A stretch of 64,000 bases of DNA from Gammaproteobacteria bacterium. Its GTDB lineage: Bacteria > Pseudomonadota > Gammaproteobacteria > Ga0077536. Positions 17,765 through 52,020 of this stretch are shown one piece after another. Both the position numbers and the translations under genes were made by a program. The stretch is taken from the NCBI GenBank assembly GCA_965278995.1, contig OZ257136.1, forward strand, positions 2,874,497 to 2,938,496, read 5' to 3'. How positions within the stretch are numbered: position 1 is the first letter of the stretch; each line of letters begins with the position of its first letter. Below the pieces are notes generated by a model. The model was not told the origin of the DNA. It was given only the letters and a program-made list of their open reading frames with translations, and made no database searches.

Positions 17765-17787
17765 AGCCCGTTGGAGCGTAACGACCC

Positions 17788-18075: not shown

Positions 18076-18266
18076 TGGGAGAAATAGCTCTAAACGAATA
18101 CGTACAAGGACGCCACGAGCATCTTGACGGTGAGTAAGGTGTAAAGAAAGACCGGGCCAGCCGGGGATGTCCAACTCCGTAACCCAACTGTCGCTAGAAA
18201 ACGGCTAATACTCCTCTGTCCACTCGTAACGCGCCATACATTCGACGCCTACCGTGCTTCCGCCGC

Positions 18267-18781: not shown

Positions 18782-18818
18782 TCTGACGTGTACCGATGCA
18801 GATGGCTACAGTCTGTGA

Positions 18819-21407: not shown

Positions 21408-21438
21408 GATGGAAGTCCGGTAGATAACCGGCCTGGCC

Positions 21439-22086
21439 TCAACCACTGAACTTGATCGTGTAACCCCACGAGTCCAGCTGGGCCGGAATGGCATTGAACG
21501 ACAGCGTGATGCGCTGCTTGCCTTGATTGGGCGGGACCGCGTGCATGAGAAAACTCGGAAACAGTGCAAGGTCGCCGGGGAAAGGCGCTGGACTGATCCA
21601 CTTATCGGCATTGAACTCGTTCGGCGTCATACGTCCGTGGTCATTTTTAAACAGGAAATCCGTGCCGCCTGGAGATTTCATGAAAACGGTCTGCGATCCG
21701 GGATGCGTTGCCGTCAAATACACCACGCCCGAGATGAAACTATTGGCGTGGTTGTGCATGGCCTGCCGACCGCCCGTCTCCAGTACATTGACCCACATCT
21801 CTTTCAGCGACCAACCCATGCGCTCGCCGAAGAGTAAAGCTCCGAAGTCGATAATCTTCGGGGTGATCAGCGCCGCAGCTTTGACGAACAGCGGATTATC
21901 GCTCGGGCGCAGTATCTCGGTGTGGGAAAGATTAGAGGATGAACTGTTGCCACGTGTTGCCAATGTGGAAAAGTGTTCAATCAACCCTTTCACCAGTGAA
22001 TGATCCAACACTGAGGGTGCCCGCATGAAGGGGATGGGGAAGAGCGGGATTACTTCATCCATCTTTTTTTTCATTGGACTTGCCAT
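21439..22086 (-). CDS. Fe(II)/2-oxoglutarate oxygenase-like protein (TIGR02466-like family)
   Basis: The motifs HNHANSFISGVVYL and SFLMHAVPPN give an HxD/H...H arrangement. The assignment is by family resemblance only. Confidence 0.55.
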   Translation of the reverse strand: MASPMKKKMDEVIPLFPIPFMRAPSVLDHSLVKGLIEHFSTLATRGNSSSSNLSHTEILRPSDNPLFVKAAALITPKIIDFGALLFGERMGWSLKEMWVNVLETGGRQAMHNHANSFISGVVYLTATHPGSQTVFMKSPGGTDFLFKNDHGRMTPNEFNADKWISPAPFPGDLALFPSFLMHAVPPNQGKQRITLSFNAIPAQLDSWGYTIKFSG

Positions 22087-22165
22087 TGTCTCTGAATATG
22101 CACCAGTGGCGGGAATAATCGGCAAAACGTTCGTCGATAGTGCAACCCGCAACAGCGTTTGCACG

Positions 22166-23113
22166 CTAGCTTAAAATTGCCGCAACTCGCAGCCACGACC
22201 AGTACGCCGCCAGAGAGCCGATACCGTATAACAACGGAAGGCGGCCGCGCTCGACCAGCGGCCACCGCCGAAGTGCGCGCCAGATTAGCCACGCTGTTGC
22301 TACTGCCAGCAGCTGCCCGATCTCGACACCGATGTTGAAGGTCAGCAATGCGGTTGGCAGATAGTTCTGCGGCAGGCCGACTTCCTTCAGTGCGCCAGCA
22401 AAGCCCAGACCATGCATCAGTCCGAAGAGGAACGCCACTGCGGCGGGCCAGCGTTTCGATAAAGACTGGCGCTGCTGCAAGGCCTCTGCGACGACCAGCA
22501 CTATCGAGAGCGCGATGGTGGCTTCCACCGGGGGCGACCGCAATGTCAGCCAGCCCAGAGCGGCACTTGCGAGCGTAAGGCTATGCGCCGCGGTGAACGC
22601 TGTGATGGTCCACACCAGTTGACGCCGGAAACCGACAAGTACCAACAGGCTGATGACAAACAGCAGGTGGTCGATTCCACCTAAGATATGTTCCACACCT
22701 AATACTGTGTACGCCGAAGCAATCTCACCTCTGCCGCGCCGATCGTCGGCAGAACCGTACAACCGTACCGTCGGCTGGCCCGCCGTCAACGTATAGACGT
22801 GTGATTTTCCGTCCAGCCAGAAGATTTTCACGAGTGCGGCAGAATAACGCTTGCCCACTCCTTTGATTGCCAGCATACCCTGCAGTCCGCCGTCGCCACA
22901 GCGCAGCACATTGGGCTCAGCGCGGCAGCCCTCGGGCCACATCGGCTTCAGATCCGCAATGGCTGCGCCTTTTTCGCTCGCCGTCCATTGCCACACGAAG
23001 GTGCCGTGCGACGTTTCGCGAAGCTGCATCTCGGCCATGCTCATTTCGTGCGCCGCCGCTACGCCGCTCAGCATGAATACCGCCAACAACGCGAAGCGGA
23101 GCAAACCGGTCAC
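22166..23113 (-). CDS. HupE/UreJ-family membrane protein with a ~140-aa N-terminal periplasmic domain
   Basis: There is a signal peptide. The motifs GIDHLLFVISLLVLVGF and LMHGLGFAGAL are typical of HupE/UreJ. Confidence 0.65.
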   Translation of the reverse strand: MTGLLRFALLAVFMLSGVAAAHEMSMAEMQLRETSHGTFVWQWTASEKGAAIADLKPMWPEGCRAEPNVLRCGDGGLQGMLAIKGVGKRYSAALVKIFWLDGKSHVYTLTAGQPTVRLYGSADDRRGRGEIASAYTVLGVEHILGGIDHLLFVISLLVLVGFRRQLVWTITAFTAAHSLTLASAALGWLTLRSPPVEATIALSIVLVVAEALQQRQSLSKRWPAAVAFLFGLMHGLGFAGALKEVGLPQNYLPTALLTFNIGVEIGQLLAVATAWLIWRALRRWPLVERGRLPLLYGIGSLAAYWSWLRVAAILS

Positions 23114-23982
23114 TTCGTGGCGGTCTCGGTTTTCACGTTGTACTTCTTAGCTAACGCGCGCACGGCAGCAGTGCGTTGTTCGGCCATAGTGGCGTCGGTC
23201 CAGTCCTGCAATACCACACCGCGCAGACGCTCGAATACTGCTGGCTTGGATGGAGTCATCAAATCAAGTCGGATCGCGCGCCACCCCTCACGCGTCGAAT
23301 ACGCTCGCCATTCGCCCGTCGGCGATTCTCCGAGCATCTTCGCGAATTCAAGGCCATAGCTCTCAGTGAGGTTCGCCTGCGGTCGCCCCTTGAAGACCCG
23401 CAACCCGGCCTCCGCCTCAGCCGGCGCTCCGGCATTCAGACTTTTGACAAAGGCGCGCACCGTCACTTCAGTGGCGTCGCCGGCGAGCACTGCCTCCTCG
23501 AAATCGTAGCGCGCTGGCTCGTCGTATTGAGTACGGCGTATTTCAAACCATTTGCGTAGGAGTTTGTCGTCGAATGGCGGCAGTTGGACATTCGCATCGA
23601 TGACACTGAGGGCCTTGAAGATTATCCGCTGCCGGATGGCATCATCGCCCTTGTCCACCTGCAGCGCCAACCCTTCACGATAAAGCACCTCATTGTCGAG
23701 CCAGACCTGCCGCAGCGCGTCCAATTCCGCCTTGGTGGGATCCCGGCCGCGCGAAGCCTTGAACACCTGCCTGGATTCCTTGTCGACGTCGGCGCCAATC
23801 ATGATCGTCTGCGGATCATCCACGCTTTCGAGCAAAAAGTGATCGAACGCGAACAGCAAGCCGCCCAGCACGATGAAATGGACGAGCGGCTCGCGCAGCC
23901 AGTTAGGCCAACGCATTTTGCGACGTACCACAGCGGTGTCGTTGAAGAGGGCAGTCGAGAGCGGAGTTGGCATGTTTGTCAT
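23110..23982 (-). CDS. Membrane-anchored hypothetical protein (single N-terminal transmembrane helix; SurA-N/PpiC-like region possible)
   Basis: It is translationally coupled to its neighbours: its stop overlaps the next start, and its start overlaps the upstream stop. The function is not established from sequence. Confidence 0.45.
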   Translation of the reverse strand: MTNMPTPLSTALFNDTAVVRRKMRWPNWLREPLVHFIVLGGLLFAFDHFLLESVDDPQTIMIGADVDKESRQVFKASRGRDPTKAELDALRQVWLDNEVLYREGLALQVDKGDDAIRQRIIFKALSVIDANVQLPPFDDKLLRKWFEIRRTQYDEPARYDFEEAVLAGDATEVTVRAFVKSLNAGAPAEAEAGLRVFKGRPQANLTESYGLEFAKMLGESPTGEWRAYSTREGWRAIRLDLMTPSKPAVFERLRGVVLQDWTDATMAEQRTAAVRALAKKYNVKTETATK

Positions 23983-24708
23983 TCACATCGTAAATGCGAG
24001 CTGGCAGGAAGTCCCGAAGCTGAAAATACCCGTGCGTCTATTCGGAGACGGCAGCAGGCGATCCCGGTCAGCGATCACCATCGCCAAACTGCGCATTCTC
24101 TCCTTGTGCAGCAATCTCAAACCAAAAACGATCAACATCGCCAGCAACGGTGCGGACGGTGCCAGCGGAATCTGACGCGTGCTTGCTCCACTTGCATCAG
24201 CAGTCACCACAAAATCCAGACCGTAGGAGGTCGGGCCGCCGGTCTCCTGCACCCACACGGAATACATACCGCTCGGATGCCCGGCGCCGAAGCCAATGGC
24301 AGGAAGAATGTCGGTACCGACATGCTCATAGCTGTAGTGAGCGAAACCCAGCAGATTCTCGACGCCTGCACCCGAGGGTGACACCGTAATCTGCGGGCCC
24401 GCTTGCAGGGCGATGAACGATGCGCCTCCCGATACGGTCGTGCTGCCCGCAAGAATGAGCGACGTCAGGCTCGATCCAGCAGGCACCGCGAACGTGAAAT
24501 AGTCGCGATCGACTCCCTGCCCGTTATTTCCCGTGGCACCGAGTACGCTATTCACGCCGGGCGTGACGACCAGCGCAGTGGGCGCCAGACCGTTATTGGA
24601 AAAATCACCGTCGCTGTCTTCGTTCCAGACGGTAACGCCGTGTGCCGCAAACGCTCCGCCCACGGCAAGCATCACTGCCAGAAGTTTCGTGCCAGGTCCC
24701 GGTTTCAT
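23983..24708 (-). CDS. Secreted PPC-like-domain protein with an internal PEP-CTERM-like segment (IPLAPSAPLLAMLIVFGLRLLHKER) followed by a ~40-aa extension
   Basis: There is a signal peptide MKPGPGTKLLAVMLAVGGAFAAHG. DRDYFTFAVPAGSSLTSLIL resembles a pre-peptidase C-terminal domain. The sorting-like segment is not at the extreme C-terminus. Confidence 0.5.
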   Translation of the reverse strand: MKPGPGTKLLAVMLAVGGAFAAHGVTVWNEDSDGDFSNNGLAPTALVVTPGVNSVLGATGNNGQGVDRDYFTFAVPAGSSLTSLILAGSTTVSGGASFIALQAGPQITVSPSGAGVENLLGFAHYSYEHVGTDILPAIGFGAGHPSGMYSVWVQETGGPTSYGLDFVVTADASGASTRQIPLAPSAPLLAMLIVFGLRLLHKERMRSLAMVIADRDRLLPSPNRRTGIFSFGTSCQLAFTM

Positions 24709-24780
24709 TGCAGATTGCTCCCAAGAGAAAGGCGCCGCGCGGATTCCGCGCGCCGCCTTTAGTAAGACGCGTGGGAGGGC

Positions 24781-27018
24781 TTACAACGCGCCGAGTATTA
24801 CCGTCCCACCCGTTACCTGGATGTAGATTGGGTTGCTGTAGAACCACAGATCAGCCCAGGCCGCCAGGTCGTTGGCCACATACTTCTGGCCACTGACGGT
24901 TGGCAAGTGTGCGGGGCAACCATCGATCGCTACGCCCGCGTACACCGTGCCGTTGGCGGGGACGGTGGTGCCGGTCACGGTACACGGGATCTTGAGGTTG
25001 GCCGTGTTGCTGGCGTTGGTATAGAGGTCCGGCAACGGGTTGCCGCTGGCATCGGTTTCGAACGGCACGGCAGCAGGCAGGTTAGTGCCGCGCAAGCGAA
25101 CGTACTGGGACGCCGAAACCGCAGGGATGCGGTAAGTCATCTTGAGGTACTGGGTGCCACCCGAACTAACTGCCACCCATGGCGTGGCGCCGTTACCGTT
25201 GAACGTCTTGATAACGGCGGCAGTCGTGTTCTTGGCCGCAGCCGGTACCGTCGCGATATTTGGATTGGCAAGCCAGGTGTTGGGCCAGGCGCCCGAATAA
25301 TCGGCCGTTCCCGGTGTCTTGTAGCCGGTTACCAGGCCCCGAATGACGTCGATGTGATCGAGTACAGGCGCGTTCACGGGCTGATTGACGCCGATTTGAG
25401 CCAACGACGGATTAGCGAAAACGTACGGTGAGTAGTTGGTCCCTGCCGGATCGCGTACGACGACCGACACCACGATTTCTGAACCTGCACGGACGGGGAG
25501 TTTCTCGCCCATCGTCGCGCAGCCGGCTTTATTGTCGATGCCCGTATTACCCGTCGCAGCGGCGATTGCCAGCGCTTCCACTGCCGCATTGGTACGGAAG
25601 GCTGCGCCCGGGTAGGACGCACAAGCAACGAATGCCAGGCGATCGATTAATTGTCCGTTGGCAGTGAAGCTGTTACCTGTGCGCAAGCCATCGACAATTG
25701 TTTGCGGTCTCAGCTTGTCGGCACCGTTGCGCACCATCGCGTAATCACGTTGATACTCACCGGGGTAGAAATCTTGCGTCGATCTGCGATCGTCGGGACT
25801 GAACACCCCGCGGTTGTGCCAGTCGGAACTTGCGAAGAACCAAAAGTTACGCCCTTCTCCGAGCAAGGCATCCCATACGCCACCGACGTAGGCGCCATAG
25901 ACACCGGTACCGCCATAGGTCGTGCCGCCAACGGAATCGACCAGGACGCCGCCTATGTTGTTCCGATTGGGCGAGTACTCGCCTCGATTATCTGAAGCGT
26001 GGTGACCCGGCTGCGTCTCCATGCCGAAAGCGACTTGCGGCGCGGCATTGTTGAAGTTGCGCAGATGCTCAATATTGAAGCCGTTGTTGCCGTCGGGATT
26101 GAACGGCCCGGCGCGTTCGAGGTGGGCAGGGACGTAGTAGCTTCCAGTCGGATGCTTCTCAACCATCCACTTCAATGCTTCGACTGTCTTGTTGTGTCCG
26201 CGCGTGCCGTTACCGGCGCCGCTGGCGGGTACAAGCTTCTTGGCGCTGTCGTTCCAGCTTGGATCGGCCACATTCAGGCTGCCAGTAACAGAGCAATCCC
26301 AGTTGTTGCCTTCACTCGTGCCGGTGGTGTTGCCACGGCTCGTGTCCGTGTCATTGCGGTCGAAGCAGTACTCCCACTGGGCCAATGCCGTAGCATTACC
26401 AAGACCGGTATAGCGAGAGCCGCTCGCGTTCGGTTCGGTCGGCAGAACAGCAGTATCCAGGGCCATCGGAATCTGGCCTGTAATGACAGCCATCGACGTG
26501 TGTTCATGCCCTGGCACAACCGTTTCGACACCGATGAACATCGGCTCGTTCTTCAGTGCGGCCAGATACTCGACGACGGGATACTGGAATTCCTGCACCG
26601 ACTGCCAGCGCCACATATTACGATTCACGCCGCTGCCAGAAACATTGCCCTTGACCGTAACGCCGCTGTTGACCCAGGTCGTTGTCGGCCCTGACCCGGC
26701 GATTAACGGATACGCCGGTGTGTCGAGCGTGGCGTCCTCGGTCAGTGTGCAGTTGCGATTGCCGCTGCCGCCGTGGCCCGCTTGCACGAACCAATCCAGG
26801 CCCCACGGGGTGTCCAACTGGTCGGTCGATTTTTTTATCAGCTTCTGCATCGAAATCGAGCCGTCCGAGCAGGTCGTATGGTTATGAAAGTCGCCCGCTA
26901 CGTATTTGCCTGGCGTCTTACCTGCTGCCTTCGTAACGGTAGGCGCGGTAGCCAGAGCGGTGGTGCCGATAGCCGCGACCGCCGCGAGGGCGATGTGGCG
27001 CTTGAATCCAGTTTTCAT
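24781..27018 (-). CDS. Large secreted PHP-domain metal-dependent phosphoesterase-like protein (745 aa)
   Basis: There is a signal peptide. PHP motifs present: GDFHNHTTCSDGS, PGHEHTS, QPGHHASD and SSDWHNRG. Confidence 0.65.
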   Translation of the reverse strand: MKTGFKRHIALAAVAAIGTTALATAPTVTKAAGKTPGKYVAGDFHNHTTCSDGSISMQKLIKKSTDQLDTPWGLDWFVQAGHGGSGNRNCTLTEDATLDTPAYPLIAGSGPTTTWVNSGVTVKGNVSGSGVNRNMWRWQSVQEFQYPVVEYLAALKNEPMFIGVETVVPGHEHTSMAVITGQIPMALDTAVLPTEPNASGSRYTGLGNATALAQWEYCFDRNDTDTSRGNTTGTSEGNNWDCSVTGSLNVADPSWNDSAKKLVPASGAGNGTRGHNKTVEALKWMVEKHPTGSYYVPAHLERAGPFNPDGNNGFNIEHLRNFNNAAPQVAFGMETQPGHHASDNRGEYSPNRNNIGGVLVDSVGGTTYGGTGVYGAYVGGVWDALLGEGRNFWFFASSDWHNRGVFSPDDRRSTQDFYPGEYQRDYAMVRNGADKLRPQTIVDGLRTGNSFTANGQLIDRLAFVACASYPGAAFRTNAAVEALAIAAATGNTGIDNKAGCATMGEKLPVRAGSEIVVSVVVRDPAGTNYSPYVFANPSLAQIGVNQPVNAPVLDHIDVIRGLVTGYKTPGTADYSGAWPNTWLANPNIATVPAAAKNTTAAVIKTFNGNGATPWVAVSSGGTQYLKMTYRIPAVSASQYVRLRGTNLPAAVPFETDASGNPLPDLYTNASNTANLKIPCTVTGTTVPANGTVYAGVAIDGCPAHLPTVSGQKYVANDLAAWADLWFYSNPIYIQVTGGTVILGAL

Positions 27019-27077
27019 CGAGCCTGCTCCTGTGTGGGTGTTGAGATTGAGAGCGACGAAGAGCCTATCGATTCACG

Positions 27078-27104
27078 GTGACATCGATATGACATATCGG
27101 TGAC
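27078..27104. promoter_or_regulatory. Three direct TGACA repeats spaced 10-12 bp apart (TGACAtcgatATGACAtatcggTGACA), upstream of divergent secreted-protein genes. This is a candidate regulator binding site.
   Basis: Read directly in the sequence; the repeats are phased by about one helical turn. Confidence 0.3.
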
Positions 27105-27260
27105 ACGGCGAGACTGTTTGGCTGGCGACTATCCGATGCAATGGAAGGCCGATGTGTTTCATCGGCTTGTAATACACACGAGAGAATATCCACTCGCACA
27201 CTCGGGCGTCGCGCGTGCGGAATACAAATTATCAATCAGCACTCTGACAGGATACTCACT

Positions 27261-27893
27261 ATGAAACTCAGCCGACTCTTTGCAGTGGCCACTTTGAGCG
27301 CTATGGCTGCCAGCCCAACTTTCGCCGCACAGTTCACTGTTGATTTCGAGAAGAACTGGGACTATCTCGACGGCGACATCAACGGCTACTACAATGGCGG
27401 TACCGCGGCTGACGGAACAACCGGTGCCAATCTCGGCGTTTCATTCGTGGGCGTATCAGGCTTATCCAACGATCTCGACTTCACTTACTACACCGGGGCT
27501 CCATCGCCGCAGGGCACAGCATATGCCCACACGTTCGCGCCTGAAGACCTTGCATTCATGAACGTCGCAGCCGGTGTCGACAACGCGCTCTCGTTCTATT
27601 ATTCGAGCCCGGGCGATGCGCTCGGCGCAGTGAAAGCCTACTCCGGCTTGAATGGCACAGGCACACTGTTGGGCACGCTAGATCTGGCGGCAAATACCAC
27701 TGGTGGCTACGACGTATGGACACTCGTGACGTTCGCGTTCACCGGCACCGCCCTGTCGTTTGATCTCACTGGCAGTGCCAATCTGGTCGGCCTGGACGAT
27801 ATCAGCGCGGTCCCGGTGCCGCCGGCACTGGTCCTGCTGGCTTCTGCCCTGCTCGGCATTCCGGCAGTACGCCAACGGATCAACCGGACGTAG
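27261..27893 (+). CDS. Secreted PEP-CTERM-like (VPVP variant) protein
   Basis: There is a signal peptide MKLSRLFAVATLSAMAASPTFA. The C-terminus is AVPVPPALVLLASALLGIPAVRQRINRT. Confidence 0.75.
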   Translation: MKLSRLFAVATLSAMAASPTFAAQFTVDFEKNWDYLDGDINGYYNGGTAADGTTGANLGVSFVGVSGLSNDLDFTYYTGAPSPQGTAYAHTFAPEDLAFMNVAAGVDNALSFYYSSPGDALGAVKAYSGLNGTGTLLGTLDLAANTTGGYDVWTLVTFAFTGTALSFDLTGSANLVGLDDISAVPVPPALVLLASALLGIPAVRQRINRT

Positions 27894-28016
27894 CCCACCT
27901 ACTCTCAGGCCATGAGAACACCGGCGGAACTGCGGACTGCGTCACCTGCACGTGACGTAGTCCGCAAGTAGCTGCAATTCGGATATTGAATCGGGTGGTA
28001 AATGACGGCGGATGTT

Positions 28017-28982
28017 CTAAACAAACTGCAGCATGACTTCAGCAAGGTGATGAAGCGCGTCGCCCATGACAACAATCTGAATCAGCAAAGCGACCGCAAG
28101 CACGCTCATTGCATGGCTGGTTTTCCAGCTTCGCCATTCCGGTCGTTGCAGGGCGCAGGTTCGCGCGCCAGCATTCAGTGCGTCGAATGTCGCCGAGCCA
28201 ACATTACCTTGAGCCAGCCGCCAACGCGTCATCGCCTCAATCGTAGACACAACCATCCCCACGTCCCCAGTTGCGCGCGAGACCGCATAGTCACACGACT
28301 GTTCGGCGGCAAGGTGCAGTTCGGCGAGCAAGCGCCCACGTCCTGCTGCTGGCCACGTGAGGCTCGCGGTGCTTGCCAGCAGGTTACGTAAATTGTCACC
28401 GCGATAGCAATGCGCGCGTTCATGTAACAGGATGACCTCAACCTGAGCGGGAGTGGCGTGTTCCAGTAACCCGCGCGACAGCAGGATGGTCGGCTTCAAC
28501 ACGCCGATACAGCAAGCGAGCAGGGTATCACTGTCGAGTACCCTGAACGATTTTCCCGTTACAGGTCGCGCCATCCACGTCAGCATGCTGGCGCTACGCG
28601 CACTGCGCCAGATCGCAGCGCTGGTGATTGCAATCGCGGCAAGCAGTAGTGTTGCAACTATCCATGGGATTGCATGCGCCACCGATTCGGAGACTTCCAA
28701 TATCGGCACGTGTCCGCCGCAGGCCTTGCCATGACAATGACTATCGACGATCAGCGTACTCAAGCCCGGCGCAAATACGATGAGCGTAATAACGACAGCA
28801 AGCGTCATTGGATACAGCGCGTAGCAGAACAGATAGAACGACCGTTGAGCAGGGACCAAAGGTCGCATTTTCCTCACGATCCAAGGCACCGCCAGCGCCG
28901 CCAAGCCGCTCAACAGGTACCACAAAGCGAAGAACGCCAGCACGGGTAGTACTACGGGTTCAGCGATCAGCGAGGCGTGCAT
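28017..28982 (-). CDS. BlaR1/MecR1-family M56 peptidase signal transducer (anti-repressor)
   Basis: It has multiple transmembrane helices and the zinc motif HERAHCYRGD (HExxH). Confidence 0.8.
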   Translation of the reverse strand: MHASLIAEPVVLPVLAFFALWYLLSGLAALAVPWIVRKMRPLVPAQRSFYLFCYALYPMTLAVVITLIVFAPGLSTLIVDSHCHGKACGGHVPILEVSESVAHAIPWIVATLLLAAIAITSAAIWRSARSASMLTWMARPVTGKSFRVLDSDTLLACCIGVLKPTILLSRGLLEHATPAQVEVILLHERAHCYRGDNLRNLLASTASLTWPAAGRGRLLAELHLAAEQSCDYAVSRATGDVGMVVSTIEAMTRWRLAQGNVGSATFDALNAGARTCALQRPEWRSWKTSHAMSVLAVALLIQIVVMGDALHHLAEVMLQFV

Positions 28983-28983
28983 A

Positions 28984-29388
28984 TCATTTGACCTCGAGAT
29001 GCGCGCGCAGTGTGTCCAGCATGGCCCGCGCTTTATCGGGTTCGAGTTCGTCGACGAGATTCAGGAACCCGCTGAGCAGCGGCTCGATTCGCCCAGTCGC
29101 AAGGTCCTGCGAAAGATCGTTCATCAAGAGGGTAATTAACGCGGTCCGGTCGAGTTTCGTTACGTACTCAAATGCGCGCCTCTGCTTTTGTCGAGTGAGC
29201 AAATTCTTGCGCGTCAACCGTTCTAACGTCGATTGCACGGTGCTGAGCGTTATATCGCGCGGGTGCAGTGCGTCGAGTACCTCACGCGCAGTCAGTCGTT
29301 CATGGCGCCACGCCAGCTCCATTACCTCGATCTCGAGTTGTCCAAGGCGCGGCGCCCGACTCCGCCGTCGCATCCCTATGAAGTTCAT
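28984..29388 (-). CDS. BlaI/MecI/CopY-family transcriptional repressor
   Basis: It has a winged-helix N-terminus (LGQLEIEVMELAWRHERLTAREVLDAL) and is coupled to the downstream BlaR1-like gene. Confidence 0.8.
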   Translation of the reverse strand: MNFIGMRRRSRAPRLGQLEIEVMELAWRHERLTAREVLDALHPRDITLSTVQSTLERLTRKNLLTRQKQRRAFEYVTKLDRTALITLLMNDLSQDLATGRIEPLLSGFLNLVDELEPDKARAMLDTLRAHLEVK

Positions 29389-29526
29389 GAATTACCGTCT
29401 CGTTACAGTGGCGTTCAAAGTTCGAGGATTAATCGGTTTTCAGGAACGATGCTAAAACAGCACTGTTACAGCAATTACCGCAAGGACCCTGCATGCCTAT
29501 CGCCAACATCATTCGACCGTGTCGCC

Positions 29527-31653
29527 GCATTGCAGTCGCAACTCATGACTAAGGTACGGAAAATCCCGATGCCTGGTACCCAGCATAGAATACATCTGTA
29601 TTTGCAGACTATCCTCTTTGCAGCCGCGTCACCATTGGCGCTGGCCCACGATGCGAGCGATGACGAGATCGTCGTGACCGGGCGCGCGCAGGCTCTGACC
29701 GGCATCGCGAGCAGTGCGGCACAAGGCCTCATCGGTGCGCGCGATCTGGCATCGCGTCCTATCCTGCGCTCGGGCGAGTTGCTTGAAGTGGTGCCCGGTG
29801 CGGCAGTGACTCAACACTCCGGCACCGGCAAGGCAAATCAATATTTTTTGCGCGGCTTCAATCTCGACCATGGTACCGATTTCGCCGGCTTTCTCGATGG
29901 CGTGCCGCTCAACATGCCGACGCATGGCCATGGCCAGGGTTATCTCGATCTGAATCCCATCATTCCCGAGCTGGTCGACGGTATCGCCTATGGCAAAGGA
30001 CCCTACTACGCGGATGTCGGCGATTTCTCCTCGGCCGGTTATGCGCGCTACAGCCTCGCCACACATCTGCATGATCGGCTGCTCGAAGTCGGCGTCGGCG
30101 AGGACGGCTACTATCGCGGAGTCACGGCAGGTTCCAACGCCGTCGCTGCCGGCGAAGTACTGTACGGCTTCGAAGCACAACATTATGACGGGCCGTGGAC
30201 GAAGGAAGAAAATGCGCACAAGCTGAACGGGCTGCTCAAATACGCTCAGGCGTTCGAGGGGCACCTGCTCGACTTGACTCTGATGGCCTACGACGCCAAC
30301 TGGGACGCCACGGATCAGGTGCCCTCGCGCGCGATAGCCGATAAGCGGATTTCCCGTCTCGGCAACATCGACCCGACTCTGGGCGGCAGCAGCACGCGGT
30401 ACAGCGCGAACCTGAGTCTGGCCGGCGGCGACGACGTGCTCGGTTACAAGGCCAATGCCTACGCCGTGTATAGCGACTTCAGCCTGTTCTCGAACTTCAC
30501 GTATTTTCTCGATGATCCGATCAACGGCGATCAGATCACGCAGGCCGATCGGCGCTGGATCACCGGTCTCAATACGGCCTGGACCGGCAGTCACGACATC
30601 CTCGGACTGGCCTCGCGGACAACACTCGGTGCGCAGCTTCGCCACGACCGTATCCTCGATGTCGCGCTGGGTCGGAGCCAGGACCGCCGATTGCTCTCGA
30701 CCGTACGCGACGATCAGGCATCTGAGACCGGCCTCGGCTTTTATCTCTCGAACGAGACCCACCTGACCGATTGGCTGCGCAGCATCGTCGGCCTGCGCGG
30801 CGACCACTACTGGTTCGATGTCACCAGCAGCGCCGCGCAGAATTCAGGCACGGCGACCGACACGCTGGTCAGCCCGAAAGTCAGCGTGGTGCTTGGGCCC
30901 TGGGCCGCCAATGAATTTTATCTCAACTTCGGCCGCGGCTTTCACAGCAACGATGCGCGCGGCACGGTCACGCGCGTCGATCCCGTGACCGGCGATCCGG
31001 CATTACCGGTCTCGCCGCTGGTCCGTTCCGATGGTGCCGAGATCGGCTGGCGCTCGACCGCCATCGCCGGTCTGCAGACGACAGTCGGCGTGTGGTATCT
31101 CGAACTCGATTCGGAGCTTCTGTTCGTCGGTGATGCCGGCAGTACCGAACCTTCGGGTTCGTCGCGCCGCTACGGTGTGGAGTGGAGCAATTTCTATCGC
31201 GCGACCGACTGGCTGACGCTCGATCTGGACGTTGCCTTGACGCAGTCGAAATACCGCAAGGTCGAGGAACACGAAATCCCGAATTCGGTTGGTCGCGTGA
31301 TCACCGCGGGTGCCGTGGTCGATTGGCCGCTGGGATTCTTCGGCTCATTGCGCCTGCGCCATTTCGGCGACAGCCCGCTGATCGAAGACAGTCGCGCCCA
31401 CGCCGAACCGACGACCGTGGTCAATTTACGCGGCGGTTGGCATTGGACGCGGCAGATGGATATCGCGCTCGAAGTGTTCAACCTCTTCGATTCGCACGAT
31501 GCCGATATCAGCTATTTCTTTGCGTCCTGTCTACCGAGCGATCCGGCCGCACAATGTGGCGCCGGCCTGCCGGAACGCGAGGGCGTGGAAGATCTTCACC
31601 TGCATCCCGTCGAACCACGAACTATCCGCGCGACCTTGAGCCTGCGCTTCTGA
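29527..31653 (+). CDS. TonB-dependent outer-membrane receptor
   Basis: It has a signal peptide, a plug domain (DEIVVTGRAQ), barrel motifs and a C-terminal aromatic residue. The start is set at MTKVRKIPMPG. Confidence 0.85.
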   Translation, partial: ALQSQLMTKVRKIPMPGTQHRIHLYLQTILFAAASPLALAHDASDDEIVVTGRAQALTGIASSAAQGLIGARDLASRPILRSGELLEVVPGAAVTQHSGTGKANQYFLRGFNLDHGTDFAGFLDGVPLNMPTHGHGQGYLDLNPIIPELVDGIAYGKGPYYADVGDFSSAGYARYSLATHLHDRLLEVGVGEDGYYRGVTAGSNAVAAGEVLYGFEAQHYDGPWTKEENAHKLNGLLKYAQAFEGHLLDLTLMAYDANWDATDQVPSRAIADKRISRLGNIDPTLGGSSTRYSANLSLAGGDDVLGYKANAYAVYSDFSLFSNFTYFLDDPINGDQITQADRRWITGLNTAWTGSHDILGLASRTTLGAQLRHDRILDVALGRSQDRRLLSTVRDDQASETGLGFYLSNETHLTDWLRSIVGLRGDHYWFDVTSSAAQNSGTATDTLVSPKVSVVLGPWAANEFYLNFGRGFHSNDARGTVTRVDPVTGDPALPVSPLVRSDGAEIGWRSTAIAGLQTTVGVWYLELDSELLFVGDAGSTEPSGSSRRYGVEWSNFYRATDWLTLDLDVALTQSKYRKVEEHEIPNSVGRVITAGAVVDWPLGFFGSLRLRHFGDSPLIEDSRAHAEPTTVVNLRGGWHWTRQMDIALEVFNLFDSHDADISYFFASCLPSDPAAQCGAGLPEREGVEDLHLHPVEPRTIRATLSLRF

Positions 31654-45786: not shown

Positions 45787-45820
45787 ATCGCGAGATCCTC
45801 AATCAATCGAAAAGCAGGTT

Positions 45821-45899
45821 GGTGAAAAACTACTGCGCTCGGCATGACGGCATTGCACGAGCGCGCCTTGTCCTGCCTTCGCTCGCTACGTTTTTCACC
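45821..45899. repeat. MITE/REP-like palindromic element, copy C (GGTGAAAAACTAC ... TACGTTTTTCACC), directly abutting the terminal attC of the cassette array
   Basis: Its reverse complement is ~85% identical to copy B, and the core CCTTGTCCTGCC is shared with copy A. Confidence 0.6.
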
Positions 45900-45902
45900 A
45901 GC

Positions 45903-45972
45903 CTGCTAACGCGTCGAAGAGCGGCGTTGGAGCGCGCAGCGCGGAAGCGGCCGCTCGATTGGCGGGTTAAGT
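45903..45972. other. Integron attC site 1. It is the most diverged member of the attC family, with an inverse core TAAC and a core GTTAAG.
   Basis: It runs from GCCTGCTAAC to CCGCTCGATTGGCGGGTTAAG and is aligned to four other copies. Confidence 0.6.
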
Positions 45973-46612
45973 GCCGCGGTCTGCCAAACTAAGTGCAACA
46001 CCCTCATCGATCGCGGGTGGAGAACCGGCGTTACTGTCGGCTTCCTCGTCCGCCAAGACGGGGTTGTAAACATGACATACCACCAGCTCTCCGATAATGA
46101 ACAATACGTCATCGGCAGGCTTTGCCGCCAGCGGCGCAGCCTACGCTAAATCGCCTTTGCAGCGGGCCGTGCATCATCAGCCGCATACTCAAGCGGAACG
46201 CCACCCAGCACGACGGCCACTACCGGCCTGAAAAGGCCCACCAATATGCTGTCGCCAGGCGTCGTCGCAGCCGCCGTAATCGACACCATGGTCCATGTGA
46301 CTGGAAGCCCCATGGCCCGCGCGCTGCCCAGCCAATCGCGGCAGATTGCTCGGCAAGCGCCATATCAGCGAGCGTTCTAAACGCGTCGAGCGCGTGACCG
46401 GCTTCCTCGTCATCAAAAAGCGCAAAGCCCGCACCATGGCGCAAGCGGCCCGCGCCCTCACTCGCGCTATCCCACAACTCGATGCACGCTTCACGACCGT
46501 CACGCTCGACAACTTGACAACCGACCGCGCGAGCGGCTCGGATTTAAAACACCCGCCGAAGTATTCTTCGGCCCGTCCTAACGGTGCTGCACTTCAAAGT
46601 GGAATTCAAGCC

Positions 46613-46819
46613 TCAGTGCGAGGCCAGTTCTTCACGGACAATTTTGCGCACCAATTCTGGGGAGAGAACCTCTTCGCCCGAGCTGACGTGCGCTTTAAGT
46701 GCCTCGTTGATCAATGTCTGGTAGCCCTTACCAGACTTCTCCGACCGCAGTTTGAACTGTTGGAGAATTTCGTCATCAAGATAAATTGTGATACGAGTCT
46801 TTCCAAGCGGCGAGATCAC
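46613..46819 (-). CDS. BrnA-like ribbon-helix-helix antitoxin (COG3514 type) in a gene cassette
   Basis: It is a small protein (KGYQTLINEALKAHV) encoded downstream of a BrnT-like toxin, in the toxin-first order typical of BrnTA. Confidence 0.55.
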   Translation of the reverse strand: MISPLGKTRITIYLDDEILQQFKLRSEKSGKGYQTLINEALKAHVSSGEEVLSPELVRKIVREELASH

Positions 46820-46889
46820 TGCACCACGCTTGGCCTTCGAAAAGTCATATTCCTTTTTTTTAGTTCCGTCGCTCTTTCGGCTCGGCCAT

Positions 46890-47117
46890 TCAAACGGAGA
46901 TCAATCTGATATTTGCGCCACGGGGCGCCCATTTCACGACCATTAACGAATTAAAGAAGTTCATTCCTAAACTAACGAAACGCCGCTCGCCTTCGACGAA
47001 GGCGTCTTCCATTGTCAGGGCGTGGGGATCAATTAACACTCCGTCTCGTTTCGCGAGAGAAACCCCATGCTTCTGACGATTCGCTTCGTCCTTGGTCGGG
47101 TCATACTCGACGCTCAT
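46890..47117 (-). CDS. BrnT-like (DUF497/COG2929) ribonuclease toxin in a gene cassette
   Basis: MSVEYDPTKDEANRQKHGVSL...ERRFVSLG matches the BrnT family pattern. The start is internal to a longer ORF in the track. Confidence 0.55.
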   Translation of the reverse strand: MSVEYDPTKDEANRQKHGVSLAKRDGVLIDPHALTMEDAFVEGERRFVSLGMNFFNSLMVVKWAPRGANIRLISV

Positions 47118-47175
47118 TGAGTATGCACATTGTGCATATGGCGGAACAGAGGAGACGTTGAGAGGGTCAGTCTGA

Positions 47176-47244
47176 GGCCTAACGCGCCGATGATTGGCGG
47201 AGGAGTGCGCAGCACGAAGGCGTCCGCTCCATGGCTGGTTAGCC
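47176..47244. other. Integron attC site 2 (GGCCTAAC ... CGTCCGCTCCATGGCTGGTTAGC)
   Basis: It belongs to the same ~68-bp family as attC sites 3-5, with an imperfect internal dyad and unpaired bases. Confidence 0.7.
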
Positions 47245-47248
47245 ATCG

Positions 47249-48034
47249 CTACGGGAGTAGACCCAGGGATTGCAGACATGACCGACTGAGCTTCTCTCGC
47301 GTTGGACCCATTTCTGCATTCTTCATGTCCATGTTCAGGGCGAAGGGATAATTTATCCCACCGGAATTTACCCACCCGACCCACCAGCCGACACCTTCGT
47401 TCGGATAGTTCTGCCACCCAGACTTCGCCCAAAGGCCCCAGCCTTTGCCCTTGTCTTTGAGAAGGATTTCCTGGGTTTGAGTTTGCACCGTTTCGCTCAC
47501 CGGGAGACGATGAGCTACAAGCTTCGCAATGAAGCTGACCTGTTCGATTGCGCTGATCTGCAGTGGACCATCTAACCAGAATCGGTCTACTGCTTGGCCA
47601 ATCGTTTTATTCCCATAGTCGAAATACTCTAGCGCTTCGGCCATCCGGTTCAATCCGATTCGTCGGGCAAGCGTTTGGTATATCGCTACATTGGATAACA
47701 CGATTGCTTCGCGGAGGCTCATGTTCCGCTCCCATTCCTTGACTGGTTGCGGTTGCCCTCCGTATTCGAGAACCTCGTCAACGTCTTTGACGGCACCTAC
47801 GGTGAGTCCTATAAGCGTATTCGCGATCTTGAAGGTCGAGGCTGGGACGAACTGAGTGGTTGCGCGCTCTTGGTTGTAGCCAGTCATCTCTCCGGTTCGT
47901 GGGTCGAGGACAACAAAGGTGCCTGCTACGTTCGCTAGCCGAAACTGCTCGGCGAGATCGAGGTTCTCGGTCCACTGCGCCAAACACCGCAGCGGCACCA
48001 AGACCAACAAGAGAGCGGAAAGTGCTCTAATCAT
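47249..48034 (-). CDS. Class D (OXA-type) beta-lactamase gene cassette
   Basis: Motifs present: STFK, YGN, a KSG element, WWVGW and the omega-loop element QISAIEQVSF. A signal peptide is present. The stop lies 5 bp from attC site 2, and the start is 12 bp from the split attC site 3. Confidence 0.8.
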   Translation of the reverse strand: MIRALSALLLVLVPLRCLAQWTENLDLAEQFRLANVAGTFVVLDPRTGEMTGYNQERATTQFVPASTFKIANTLIGLTVGAVKDVDEVLEYGGQPQPVKEWERNMSLREAIVLSNVAIYQTLARRIGLNRMAEALEYFDYGNKTIGQAVDRFWLDGPLQISAIEQVSFIAKLVAHRLPVSETVQTQTQEILLKDKGKGWGLWAKSGWQNYPNEGVGWWVGWVNSGGINYPFALNMDMKNAEMGPTREKLSRSCLQSLGLLP

Positions 48035-48045
48035 TTTGATTGCGA

Positions 48046-48104
48046 TGCTTAACGTGCCGATGAGCGGCGTTGGAGTGCGAAGCACGGAAACGTCCGCTCG
48101 ATTG
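48046..48104. other. Integron attC site 3, left portion, interrupted by the IS insertion
   Basis: GCTTAACGTGCCGATGAGCGGCGTTGGAGTGCGAAGCACGGAAACGTCCGCTCGATTG matches the family, then diverges abruptly at about 48105. Confidence 0.65.
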
Positions 48105-49483
48105 ATGAAATGGACTCCTCCCGCACTTTTTGCGCCGGCATCAGTGTGCCAAAGTAGGGTTGTAACACGTCTACTTGCTCAGCTCAGGAGGAGTCCACCC
48201 ATGAAGTCTAAGATTATTGCTGTCGACCTGGCAAAGGATGTCTTCGAAGTCGCCGTCGCCGATCTCGATCACCACATCGTCGAGCGTCAGCGCTTGTCGC
48301 GCACGGCCTTCAGTCGCTTCATCTCGACACAACCGGCCGCGTTGGTGCTGGTCGAGTCGTGCGGCACCGCCCACTACTGGGCACGCCATGCCCAGGCCGC
48401 CGGACATCAGACCAAAATTATCCCGGCCCACTATGTCAAACCGTATCGCCGTCGCGGCAAGACCGACCGCGCTGACACCGAAGCCCTGCTTGAAGCCCAC
48501 CGTTGCCAAGGCATCAAGCCGGTCCCGCTGCGCTCCGTCGAGCAACAACAAATTCAACAACTCCACCGGGTGCGTGAGCAATGGAAGCGCACGCGCACCC
48601 AGCGTCTCAACGGACTGCGTGGGTTCTTACGTGAACTCGGCTTGGTTATTCCCGAAGGCGCCAAGCTCGCGCAACGGCGAGCTCATGCGTTCCTCAACGA
48701 CGACGCCATTCCGCCGCCCTTGAAGAGTGTCTTCACGCGCCTGCTCGAAGAAATCAAAACCCTCGAGAGCGACATCGCCGCCGTCGAACGACAGCTCAAG
48801 GCCCTGACCCAAGCCAATGCCGGCGTACAACGGTTACAGACCGTCGCCGGTGTCGGTCTGTTGACCAGTACCGCCATGGTCGCCGCCGCTGGCTCACCGC
48901 ATCATTTCCCCGACGGGCGTCATTTTGCCAGTTGGCTTGGCCTGACCCCACGCGAGTACAGCTCTGGTAATCAGCCGGTCCTCGGGCGGATCTCCAAGCA
49001 GGGCGACTGGGATCTGCGCATGCTGCTCACCCATGGCGCGCGCTCAGTGCTCACCAGGGCCAAGCAACTGCAACGCGTCGGAAAGACCCTGACCCGTCTG
49101 CAACAATGGGCCTGCACGCTCGAACGGCGGGTCGGTCATAACAAGGCGACCTGCGCCATCGCCAACAAGCTCGCTCGGATCTGTTGGGCCGTATGGAAAT
49201 CTGAAACCGACTTCGACGCTAACCGCGCCGCCGCTTAACCCCTCAACCCGTTTGCGTAGAGACTATCGCGTTCATGACATTTTGGTTGGACCAGTACCGA
49301 TGAAAGCCGATAACCAGCTTGCTCAGCCAAGAGCATTTCGATCGATTGGCACTCGGTGCGCGGATCTTCATGATGGCCCGGCCTCGACCAACGAGAGCCA
49401 CAGCGAGGCCGGATACACGACTGCAAACGACACCAACCGTCAGCAACGCACCTTCGTCTCTACTTGTGGGAGGAGTCCATACA
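48105..49483 (+). mobile_element. IS110-family insertion sequence of the attC-targeting IS1111 group (about 1.38 kb), inserted in attC site 3
   Basis: It carries a DEDD transposase ORF. Subterminal repeats CTACTTG-N-GGAGGAGTCCA lie near both ends (48171-48200 and 49457-49480). The flanks reconstitute an attC site. Confidence 0.65.
48201..49238 (+). CDS. IS110-family (DEDD) transposase
   Basis: The N-terminus MKSKIIAVDLAKDVFEVAV is present. The C-terminal Transposase_20-like region has VAGVGLLTSTAMVAAAG. An AGGAGG ribosome-binding site is present. Confidence 0.85.
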   Translation: MKSKIIAVDLAKDVFEVAVADLDHHIVERQRLSRTAFSRFISTQPAALVLVESCGTAHYWARHAQAAGHQTKIIPAHYVKPYRRRGKTDRADTEALLEAHRCQGIKPVPLRSVEQQQIQQLHRVREQWKRTRTQRLNGLRGFLRELGLVIPEGAKLAQRRAHAFLNDDAIPPPLKSVFTRLLEEIKTLESDIAAVERQLKALTQANAGVQRLQTVAGVGLLTSTAMVAAAGSPHHFPDGRHFASWLGLTPREYSSGNQPVLGRISKQGDWDLRMLLTHGARSVLTRAKQLQRVGKTLTRLQQWACTLERRVGHNKATCAIANKLARICWAVWKSETDFDANRAAA

Positions 49484-49510
49484 GGCTGGTTAGGCATCGC
49501 GTAGGTTAGC
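49484..49510. other. Integron attC site 3, right portion (GGCTGGTTAGG, with a second GTTAGCC copy)
   Basis: It matches the 3-prime ends of the other attC copies immediately after the IS right end. Confidence 0.5.
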
Positions 49511-49955
49511 CCCGGCGTACGGCCAAGAACGCCCCGGCCGACATTAAAACCAGGCCGACAAGTCTTTGTAAAGATAGCGTGTGCACCTGTGCGCCCAGTA
49601 GCCCAAATTGGTCTATGGCGGCCATTGAGATGAGCTGTCCGAGCAGGACAAATGCCACAGCATTGCCGACACCGAATTGTGGAGCTACCCAGGTAACGCT
49701 TAAAACGTAGAAGGCGACGAAGACACCCCCTAAATAGAAATAGAACGGGATTGATGCTTTGGGCGAAAGTCTCAGGCCACCTCCTACGGTGAACAGGAAA
49801 GCGAGCGAAACGCATAATGCCACCAGAAACAATACGGAGGCGGCGAAAGACGGGCTACCGTACGTAGAACCTAATTTGGAACTAAGCGCGGCCATAACAG
49901 GAATGCCTATACCCGTAGTAACCATAAGACAAGCAAAGAATAGTTGGTTTGCCAT
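49506..49955 (-). CDS. Small DMT-superfamily (EamA/DUF606-like) membrane protein cassette
   Basis: It is 149 aa with 4-5 transmembrane helices. Its stop lies within the attC core. Confidence 0.55.
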   Translation of the reverse strand: MANQLFFACLMVTTGIGIPVMAALSSKLGSTYGSPSFAASVLFLVALCVSLAFLFTVGGGLRLSPKASIPFYFYLGGVFVAFYVLSVTWVAPQFGVGNAVAFVLLGQLISMAAIDQFGLLGAQVHTLSLQRLVGLVLMSAGAFLAVRRG

Positions 49956-50080
49956 AGGTCGAACTCATCTAGTTATTCAAGGTGTAGGACGACAAGTTGA
50001 GGCGCGCGGACATTCAATGCAGCTCTTTGTAAATCTACTCGCGCCTTGAGAATGCGGCAACACCAACTATGCAGCGCGAT

Positions 50081-50150
50081 GCCTCAACGCGCCGATGAGC
50101 GGCGTTGGAGCGCGAAGCACGGAGGCGTCCGCTCGATTGGCTGGTTAGCT
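50081..50150. other. Integron attC site 4 (GCCTCAACGCGCCGATGAGCGGCGTTGGAGCGCGAAGCACGGAGGCGTCCGCTCGATTGGCTGGTTAGC)
   Basis: Family alignment. Confidence 0.7.
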
Positions 50151-50474
50151 GTCACTTCGTATTGCAACTTCGATATAGCTGCCGTTCGTGGCCGACGCAA
50201 TTGCGTCAACTACTGAGGCGATGGACGTTTGGATCCGCGGCCAGCTTGTCGTAGTTAACACGACGATCGAGATTTGGCGGGTATCGAGGTTCTGCTGGTA
50301 CTTCAGGTTCTGGTCTGTTGTTACCAACACATCGAATCCGTTCGCTTCGGCTTGACTCAAAAGGTCGCCATTCTGCAGAGAACCCCAGCCTCGCTCATAG
50401 GCCGTTTCAATTTCATGGGAACCGAGGTGCTTGCGAAGAGGAACTGGTGTTCCCTGATCAAACAGGATCCGCAC
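50145..50474 (-). CDS. DUF5615-type PIN-like putative toxin
   Basis: MRILFDQGTPVPL...DVLVTTDQNL matches the family. It is coupled to an upstream DUF433 partner. Confidence 0.5.
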   Translation of the reverse strand: MRILFDQGTPVPLRKHLGSHEIETAYERGWGSLQNGDLLSQAEANGFDVLVTTDQNLKYQQNLDTRQISIVVLTTTSWPRIQTSIASVVDAIASATNGSYIEVAIRSDS

Positions 50475-50693
50475 TCACGCGACTTCCAGGGATCGAGCTG
50501 CGTGTTCAAGGACTTTTCGAGCTTGGTCTAGGGTAACTCCGGGAAACCACTCCAGAAATTCTGAGATCTGGGCGCCGTCCTCAAGGTTTTCGAATAGCGC
50601 AGATACCGGAACCCGTGTGCCCCGAAACACCCACGCGCCGCTCACCATGTCTGGATCGCGATGGACAGCAGCGCATGTGGACCAATCAATCAT
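50475..50693 (-). CDS. DUF433 (COG2442) putative antitoxin
   Basis: GAWVFRGTRVPVSALFENLEDG is the DUF433 signature. Its stop overlaps the DUF5615 start. Confidence 0.5.
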   Translation of the reverse strand: MIDWSTCAAVHRDPDMVSGAWVFRGTRVPVSALFENLEDGAQISEFLEWFPGVTLDQARKVLEHAARSLEVA

Positions 50694-50733
50694 GAGTTGA
50701 TGCTACGCCAGGTCTGCACGGGGTTCAACGTGA

Positions 50734-50803
50734 CAGCTAACGTGCCGATGAGCGGCCTTGGAGCGCGAAGCGCGGAAACGTCCGCTCGATTGGCTGGTTA
50801 GAG
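50734..50803. other. Integron attC site 5 (AGCTAACGTGCCGATGAGCGGCCTTGGAGCGCGAAGCGCGGAAACGTCCGCTCGATTGGCTGGTTAGAG)
   Basis: Family alignment. The BrnA-like gene stop lies in its core. Confidence 0.7.
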
Positions 50804-51076
50804 CGAGGCTTCTTTGAACGCACGAAGCACCGCATTGATGCGAGTCTGATAGCCTGGACCTTGAGATCTAAACCACTCAAGAACATCCGCGTCTACGCGC
50901 AGCGCGATTGATGCCTTTGGCGGGATTGGCTTTAGACCCCTGCGGACTATACCGCCGACGATATGCTTGACCTTCGCCTCGGGATGCTCAGGAGATAGCT
51001 TAATGTCGCGGCCGCTTTGCGCACGTACCCGCGCCCAATCAGTTTTGGAGGTTTTCGAAGAGGATGCTTTCTTCAT
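50798..51076 (-). CDS. BrnA-like antitoxin, second copy
   Basis: GPGYQTRINAVLRAFKEA is present. It overlaps the upstream BrnT-like gene. Confidence 0.5.
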   Translation of the reverse strand: MKKASSSKTSKTDWARVRAQSGRDIKLSPEHPEAKVKHIVGGIVRRGLKPIPPKASIALRVDADVLEWFRSQGPGYQTRINAVLRAFKEASL

Positions 51077-51314
51077 TTCGGGTAGCCTTACGGGATGAGA
51101 TGACGTGGATTTCGGTTGAAGTCTCGGTATGAATTATTGATGTTGTTACCCCACCGAGGAAGCCAAGCGTTACAAAACGCTGCTCTCGGTACACAAAGCG
51201 ATTATCTTCGAAGGTAAACGTTGGCCCTTCAAAAACCCGCGGGGTGTCAACGAAATCAAAGCCATGTTCTTTAAGGTTAGTGCGGCGCTTTGGTTCGTCC
51301 CATGTGAATCGCAT
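51039..51314 (-). CDS. BrnT-like (DUF497) toxin, second copy
   Basis: MRFTWDEPKRRTNLKEHGFDF...QRFVTLG is present. Confidence 0.55.
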   Translation of the reverse strand: MRFTWDEPKRRTNLKEHGFDFVDTPRVFEGPTFTFEDNRFVYREQRFVTLGFLGGVTTSIIHTETSTEIHVISSRKATRNEESILFENLQN

Positions 51315-51365
51315 GCATCTAATGTATATACACTATGTAGATTCGTCAATCCACGACTGCGCCTC

Positions 51366-51452
51366 GCTCTAACATTCAGTAGCCATCATCCCAACCTTAT
51401 TACGCTCGTCAATCTGACGTTGAATTCCAGGTCGGAGTTAAGGCTACAGTCG
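51366..51452. other. Possible degenerate sixth attC site (CTCTAAC ... GGAGTTAAGG)
   Basis: It has an inverse-core-like TAAC and a core-like GTTAAG about 80 bp apart, with short internal inverted repeats. The call is weak. Confidence 0.25.
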
Positions 51453-52020
51453 AGTGCGAATCGGTGCGAGTGAGATGTTCAATTTTTACATCAGCAATTT
51501 GTAGTATGAGGTTGCCAGCGCCGCCAGTCATTGGCGGGAGTAGAACGCGATGATATACGTCAAACTGAAGTGATCGAAGCTACGTCCGGCCTTGCTGGAG
51601 CGCAGGTTGGCGTTCGTTGCCCGGCACGATTGTGATCGCGTATCCGGTGAATGGTTCGGAGCTACCAGGAGCTGGCTTTTTGGTTGCCTTCTATCGATCG
51701 TGTGGGTTCGGCTGTCCGAGTGCGTTAGTACCGCATTCGCACGGAGCGGGCTTACCTGTATTGGAACTGCGGCCGCGACTACGAACACCAGGAGGTGCCG
51801 CTTTACGGCATTTCAATGGCAGTGAACAGCGCCAGTACTATTATCCATATGACAGCACTGACCAGGAGGGGAGTTCTTCCGACACCCACCGCCATGCGCC
51901 ATTACTGCCGCACTGATGATCAGGAATATCGTTACGGCGAATAGAAACTTGATCACACTGTGATTGAGGATATGGTCGTGCAGGGTACGCAGAATCAAGC
52001 GTTGTATGCGCCGCACTATC

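Follow-up and report, generated by a model that had tools for sequence, protein, structure and literature searches.

A probable IS5-type MITE at gene boundaries and in the terminal attC core of a gammaproteobacterial cassette array

The window, by which we mean the whole 64-kb stretch of gammaproteobacterial DNA that was analysed, contains exactly three significant copies of a short repeat, here called A, B and C. When the window was searched with nhmmer, using a profile built from all three, copy C matched at 45812-45909 on the minus strand (E = 2e-32), copy B at 17675-17772 on the plus strand (E = 1e-30) and copy A at 1034-1131, also on the plus strand (E = 1e-26); no fourth copy was found in the 64 kb, the next profile match having E > 0.04. 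The original prediction had placed a repeat of about 80 bp at these three positions, and the alignment and the profile (E from 1e-26 to 2e-32) confirmed the places but not the length. The copies align over ~95 nt and, with limits set from the ends of related insertion sequences, the element measures 91-95 bp, occupying 1038-1132 as copy A (plus strand; 95 bp, decayed), 17680-17770 as copy B (plus strand; 91 bp) and 45815-45905 as copy C (minus strand in its canonical orientation; 91 bp), the best preserved of the three. The conserved core proposed as common to the copies was borne out, as the 12-mer GGCAGGACAAGG has three exact occurrences in the window and shuffled sequences would be expected to give 0.25 with up to one mismatch.

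Terminal inverted repeats of about 12 bp, as predicted, were present in copies B and C, but they proved longer, with a 16-bp core CAGGCTGGTGAAAAAC that extends to 18 bp when flanking bases are included. The ends of copy C are CAGGCTGGTGAAAAAC and GTTTTTCACCAACCTG, and its inverted repeat runs over 18 nt with 94% complementarity (arms at 45813-45830 and 45890-45907), while that of copy B runs over 16 nt with a few mismatches. Copy A departs from the prediction, its ends having decayed to CAGACTGACAAAAAAAC and GTTTTTAACGATTGTC, and it is clearly older than B and C. Between the 16-bp ends lies a self-folding interior of 59 bp. Over the 91 bp of the element, copies B and C have 13 differences (~86% identity), and over a 99-nt span including the flanks they have 14. 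All copies are non-coding, and the only open reading frames crossing them are spurious.

Copy C lies 28 nt upstream of the start codon (45786) of an SDR gene, and its other side adjoins the distal end of a cassette array at 45904-51372. The array has five attC sites of one family and carries its cassette genes on the minus strand, encoding two BrnT/BrnA pairs, a DUF5615 protein and a class D beta-lactamase-like protein; an attC profile built from the array found only the five array sites, at 45.9-50.8 kb. The first cassette starts at G|TTAGAGCGAGG (51372), and the inverse core CTCTAAC in its own attC matches this start and so validates the boundaries of the cassettes. No integrase gene was found between the array and the conserved CN-hydrolase gene beyond it, and as far as that gene the array is thus an attC cluster lacking an integrase. 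At its distal end, the terminal attC (45904-45972, minus strand) has the core GTTAGCA, which overlaps the first two bases of copy C. The junction on the minus strand reads G (45910), TTAG (45909-45906), CA (45905-45904), and the claim that copy C directly abuts the terminal attC thus held in a stricter form, with the start of the element lying within the 7-bp core.

The array region showed several further features. One cassette gene (47249-48034, minus strand) encodes a class D (OXA-like) beta-lactamase-type protein with an STFK motif, and its product has a Pfam Transpeptidase match among the annotations precomputed for the identical ENA contig. An IS110/IS1111-type element (48105-49484) interrupts the third attC, which resumes at 49485; the transposase of this element matches Pfam DEDD_Tnp_IS110 and Transposase_20, and subterminal inverted repeats are located at 48110-48125 and 49465-49480. 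The IS1111-attC group comprises IS110/IS1111-family elements with a dedicated specificity for attC, and the element at 48105-49484 looks like a member of this group. Between the first cassette (51372) and the CN-hydrolase gene are ~650 bp of low-GC DNA with no recognisable gene, bringing the whole region to 45904-52020. Within this DNA, ~90-100 nt at 51811-51910 match unannotated stretches of Sinorhizobium, Pseudomonas and Rhizobium plasmids at 74-77% and overlap an ORF for 30 hydrophobic residues (51803-51895, minus strand), and this stretch may encode a small toxin or a small RNA.

The same loci were compared in a relative represented by short Logan contigs of SRR34292212, with ~80% nucleotide identity over shared genes, and all four comparable sites were found to differ between the two. 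Upstream of the SDR gene, where the window has the array and copy C, the relative has a gene for a luciferase-like monooxygenase abutting the SDR gene (contig L170). The interval between an aminotransferase gene and a TonB-dependent receptor gene measures ~12 kb in the window and 278 nt in the relative (L183), with copy B at the left edge of the 12-kb segment that is absent at this locus in the relative. Conversely, the gap between a TPR gene and tadE is 55 nt long and free of the element in the window, whereas in the relative (L170) it is 125 nt long and includes a 67-nt copy in which both ends are kept and the core is missing. At the start of the secretin gene, the relative has 33 nt that match the left end of the element at 31 of 33 positions, a stretch that the window lacks. 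The relative thus contributes two further copies in ~18 kb, at sites other than the three of the window, and since its copies lie elsewhere and none is found at the window's B and C sites, the element family has moved. Two further relatives (75-78% SDR identity) had no copy in 20 kb each. An empty site for copy A was not found, the homologues of the adjoining GST-like gene occurring too widely and the surroundings in the best contig being different.

Two of these loci have features of their own. The 33-nt fragment in the relative (L182, 3686-3718) falls within the 5' part of the annotated coding sequence of the Tad secretin gene, where it would encode residues 5-15 of the called protein, and the N-terminus of the window ortholog differs. 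The ~12-kb segment of the window (17515-29600) includes a gene for a HigA-like HTH protein and a gene for a membrane protein of 930 aa.

Wider searches returned little. The core motif is absent from 185,579 species-representative genomes, where a scan with AAGGCAGGACAAGG..GCGCGCT gave a single chance match in Nitratireductor that lacks an inverted repeat; in viral contigs, neither the core nor a paired-TIR pattern gave anything beyond chance or coding matches, copy C had no blastn match among plasmids, and the motifs were met in literature full text only as unrelated primer matches. A looser form of the core found 67 loci in JGI metagenomes, all of them chance matches except one. This related element (L007; contig Ga0222713_10004769, 7572-7694, minus strand) is situated between genes for a NifU-like protein and a Rieske ferredoxin in a suf cluster, and has the same interior blocks as the window element, CGAGCG-AGGCAGGACAAGGCGCGC and GTCATGCC, together with a 49-nt insertion and different ends (TTCAAAAATG and CATTTTTGAA). 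An interior shared despite different ends is unusual for MITEs, but the comparison is biased because L007 was found by searching with the interior. The 67-nt copy of the relative has the opposite pattern, with its ends conserved and its core deleted. With the core absent from species-representative genomes and a single related copy in the JGI metagenomes, the element family may be small.

The predicted fold of the copies varied with their state of preservation. A hairpin, anticipated for the element as a whole, was very stable in copy C (-46.8 kcal/mol, z = -5.7) and weaker in copy B (z = -2.9), but copy A folded no better than shuffled sequence. A stable fold of this kind could also belong to a structured RNA, non-coding or cis-regulatory, acting on the gene downstream, and this would suit the position of three of the five copies (B, C and that of the relative at the TPR gene), each of which is oriented like the gene that follows and precedes its start codon by 17-58 nt, as well as the retention of the interior blocks AGGCAGGACAAGGCGCGC and GTCATGCC by L007 in an unrelated context. 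We nevertheless regard such a function as highly improbable. The downstream genes are unrelated to each other; copy A points towards the end of a convergent gene, in L007 the element runs antisense to the operon that contains it, and every copy lacks a promoter or terminator consensus. No pair of differences between copies B and C is compensatory, and six to seven predicted pairs are broken, which is the pattern expected of neutral decay, and the oldest copy folds like shuffled sequence. The whole window gave no matches to Rfam at gathering thresholds; in E-value mode copy B gave none and copy C only weak ones, to mir-548 and mir-6132, at 22-23 bits where the gathering thresholds are 90-112. 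The match to mir-548, at 23 bits where its threshold is 90, was set aside, as it reflects an accidental resemblance between the arms and the human Made1/Hsmar1 mariner repeat.

The hairpin of copy C is also of attC-like size and starts exactly after the G of an attC core, as might be expected if the repeat were a variant attC or an integron cassette that carries no gene. That it is either of these, as a relation of the array, can scarcely be credited: the right end has no GTTRRRY core and the left arm no RYYYAAC inverse core, copies A and B are 28-45 kb away from any part of it, and the profile of the array attC sites finds nothing at A, at B or inside C. An attC-like nature was accordingly rejected, the profile matching the five array sites only.

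The identity of the repeat was decided by a scan of viral contigs with the end sequence CAGGNTGGTGAAAAAC. One viral contig carries the 16-mer as an inverted pair 1.34 kb apart, enclosing a single ORF of 365 aa. Full-length insertion sequences that have these ends (L246, 9424-10786, and L275) measure 1.36 kb and carry one 365-aa ORF, which matches Pfam DUF772 and DDE_Tnp_1 and, as a DDE transposase, scores 269.6 bits against the NCBIfam model transpos_IS5_4 (NF033581; E = 3e-80; cut-off 140 bits). The left end of copy C is identical at 16 of 16 positions to the ends of the insertion sequences in L246, L304 and L305. The same insertion sequence, at 95% identity, was found in plasmids of Methylomonas sp. 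DH-1 and M. koyamae, where RefSeq annotates the Methylomonas plasmid gene as ‘IS5 family transposase’; a 69%-identical relative in a plasmid of Ca. Methylocalor cossyra has identical 16-bp ends, and a close variant of the end, CAGGCCGTTGAAAAA, is present in ISPst12 and in an IS5 element of Azotobacter. These full-length insertion sequences are flanked by 4-bp duplications of the YTAR type (TTAA/TTAA at L275, CTAG/CTAG at L304, CTAG/CTAG for ISPst12 and TTAA/TTAA for the Azotobacter copy), in keeping with the published IS5 target, 5'-YTAR-3' (PMC5009759).

The similarity of the repeat to these insertion sequences is confined to 19-24 nt at each end, with nothing inside, and a comparison with five IS5 relatives found no interior similarity. 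The ends of an insertion sequence placed around a short non-coding filler give the anatomy of a MITE, which is defined in these terms as an element on which the transposase of its parent acts in trans (PMC3852290). We therefore read the repeat as an IS5-type MITE, a non-coding element of 91-95 bp with the ends of an ISPst12/Methylomonas-type IS5-family insertion sequence, and put the probability of this reading at roughly 0.85. It shares with the ISPst12/Methylomonas-type elements the 16-bp terminal inverted repeat CAGGCTGGTGAAAAAC, which is identical in the Methylomonas and Ca. Methylocalor insertion sequences, and insertion beside YTAR-type tetranucleotides. Unlike those elements, which are 1.36 kb long, the MITE has no transposase gene and an unrelated interior at 91-95 bp, and none of its duplications is intact. 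Prokaryotic MITEs catalogued earlier as derivatives of IS5 and other IS families (PMC3852290) are likewise small and free of ORFs, with inverted ends of 15-17 bp that match autonomous insertion sequences and with several copies per genome; the family of the window differs from them in being new and in having an autonomous partner that is known here from other organisms. Autonomous insertion sequences with matching ends were indeed found in other organisms only, and tblastn detected no IS5 transposase in the window or in ~60 kb of DNA of the relatives. For its movement, the element would depend on an IS5-type DDE transposase whose gene lies at another place in the genome, or once did; the enzyme would bind both ends and carry the element into a YTAR tetranucleotide, duplicating those 4 bp. 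An origin from the IS630/mariner group was also considered and was dropped, there being no TA duplication and an IS5 partner having been found.

The original prediction had left the repeat between a MITE and a REP-like element, and of the two the MITE stood, on the strength of ends that are the terminal repeats of autonomous IS5-family elements, the lack of coding capacity and a presence that varies between relatives. REPINs are hairpins of ~90 bp made of two inverted REPs (PMC3337134), moved by a RAYT tyrosine transposase and not by a DDE transposase, and the window element resembles REPs and REPINs (PMC3337134, PMC3479197) in being extragenic and hairpin-forming, at about the same length, with no clean duplications. 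The imperfect palindrome inside the element, GGCAGGACAAGGCG...TGCCGTCATGCC, agrees with the E. coli REP GTAGGACGGATAAGGCG (PMC3479197) at 11 of 14 positions, a likeness that we judged to be chance, and copies B and C have GTAG 8 nt upstream of this palindrome. This GTAG, however, lies away from the foot of the hairpin, where a REPIN has it, and is missing in copy A and in L007; the 16-bp ends are not REP-like palindromes but are identical to the terminal repeats of IS5 elements of the DDE type, and no RAYT gene was seen within the 64 kb. A repeat of the REP/REPIN type is for these reasons very unlikely.

The flanks of the copies agree with the MITE reading on one side. On the left, WTAR is present in all five full or near-full members of the family: TTAG in copies B and C and in L007, ATAG in the copy of the relative at the TPR gene, of which the TAG is the stop codon, and ATAA in copy A, of which the TAA is the stop codon (1035-1037) of the GST-like gene. 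On the right, copy B comes closest to a duplication, with TTGG (17771-17774) matching its left TTAG (17676-17679) at three of four bases; copy C has CTTT (45811-45814), which does not duplicate the TTAG (45906-45909, minus strand) that serves both as YTAR target and as the TTAG of the attC core G|TTAGC, and the right flanks of copy A and of the copy at the TPR gene, GCCG and CGGG, do not match their left flanks either. Target-site duplications, a check raised with the prediction, were seen in intact 4-bp form at none of copies A, B and C or the copy at the TPR gene. For copy C, with its nearly perfect ends, the missing duplication is awkward for a MITE. Several catalogued IS5-type MITEs have direct repeats of 0 bp (PMC3852290), and duplications can be lost through adjacent deletions or recombination between copies (PMC11708052). 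A deletion on the right side of copy C is plausible, since the gene that the relative has there is absent.

Each of the three copies had been predicted to sit at a boundary, and this was upheld for all of them: copy A lies between convergent genes, copy B at the edge of the 12-kb segment, 17 nt upstream of a 95-aa ORF, and copy C at the end of the array. Copy A fills the gap between its two neighbours, and its right end (1121-1132) supplies the stop and the last three codons of the convergent gene at 1121-2197; with these codons inside the element, the insertion may have reshaped the C-terminus of the gene product. The choice of such positions is likely to reflect the target preference of the element together with the scarcity of its target. 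YTAR is depleted about five-fold in the window, with 124 sites against ~640 expected from base composition, and nine of the 124 fall in attC cores, which make up less than 1% of the sequence. As YTAR is scarce in GC-rich DNA, an IS5-type element finds few harmless landing places, and the sites at which it is tolerated would mostly be stop codons (TAA/TAG) and the TTAG/CTAA of attC cores. Insertions would thus come to lie just beyond the end of a gene, in the gap between convergent genes or within the core of the terminal attC, and the rarity of YTAR and its concentration at stop codons and attC cores would account for the boundary positions.

At copy C, the order of events can be read in two ways. 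Most likely, the element hopped into the TTAG of the attC core GTTAGC, and a later rearrangement to its right would have removed the second TTAG, probably together with the luciferase-like gene, which the relative has at this position. Alternatively, the MITE may have come first, with G-TTAG as its left flank upstream of the SDR gene, and an integrase then inserted the array at the GTT of this pseudo-core, so that the end of the MITE would have been the landing pad of an array lacking an integrase. The junction falls exactly at the integron crossover point G|TT, the 7-mer GTTAGCA matches the other attC cores (GTTAGCT, GTTAGGC and GTTAAGC), and G-TTAG likewise stands to the left of copy B, which no attC adjoins; an array that has no integrase gene and begins at a GTT outside any attC, at a locus where the relative has neither array nor MITE, would fit this order too. 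It requires, however, a rare event at a secondary site and a chance G before the TTAG, when the simpler model needs only the target choice of an IS5-type element, with 9/124 YTAR sites in attC cores. No second MITE or terminal inverted repeat is present at the other end of the array, and the missing right-hand TTAG is left unexplained by this order as much as by insertion of the MITE into the attC. We hold arrival of the array after the MITE to be unlikely.

The link between the MITE and the array has parallels in other systems. In the integrons flanked by MITEs, namely those with the 439-bp MITE of Acinetobacter and the IMU (PMC3575428), a MITE is likewise linked to a cassette array; there, the entire integron lies between two copies and is mobilised by them as a composite (PMC3575428), whereas this array has a single copy, lodged in the core of its last attC, and none at its other end. 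Elements of the IS1111-attC group, like copy C, are mobile elements that land inside attC, but unlike them the MITE would enter attC only because the core holds a generic YTAR. The end of the MITE and its TTAG flank may together rebuild a working core site, GTTAGCA, and it is conceivable, if rather a long shot, that such ends serve as anchors or landing pads for arrays lacking an integrase, or turn neighbouring chromosomal DNA into the next ‘cassette’. If this were true, it would tie the spread of the MITE to the way in which CALINs arise and move.

The repeat is a new sequence family of an ordinary kind of selfish DNA, the MITE kind itself being already known, and the current understanding of MITEs and of integrons is unchanged by the result. 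For the genome at hand, a formerly unexplained repeat becomes an annotated mobile element with a parent family and a target rule, and this rule accounts for its presence at stop codons, in the gap between two convergent genes and within an attC core. It also carries a caution for the reading of integrons: in GC-rich genomes, where YTAR is scarce elsewhere, integron cores of the GTTAG type are natural targets for IS5-type elements. Two copies of the MITE border, respectively, an indel of 12 kb and a 6-kb cassette array that replaces a gene, and the element is thus a marker of recent rearrangements in this lineage.
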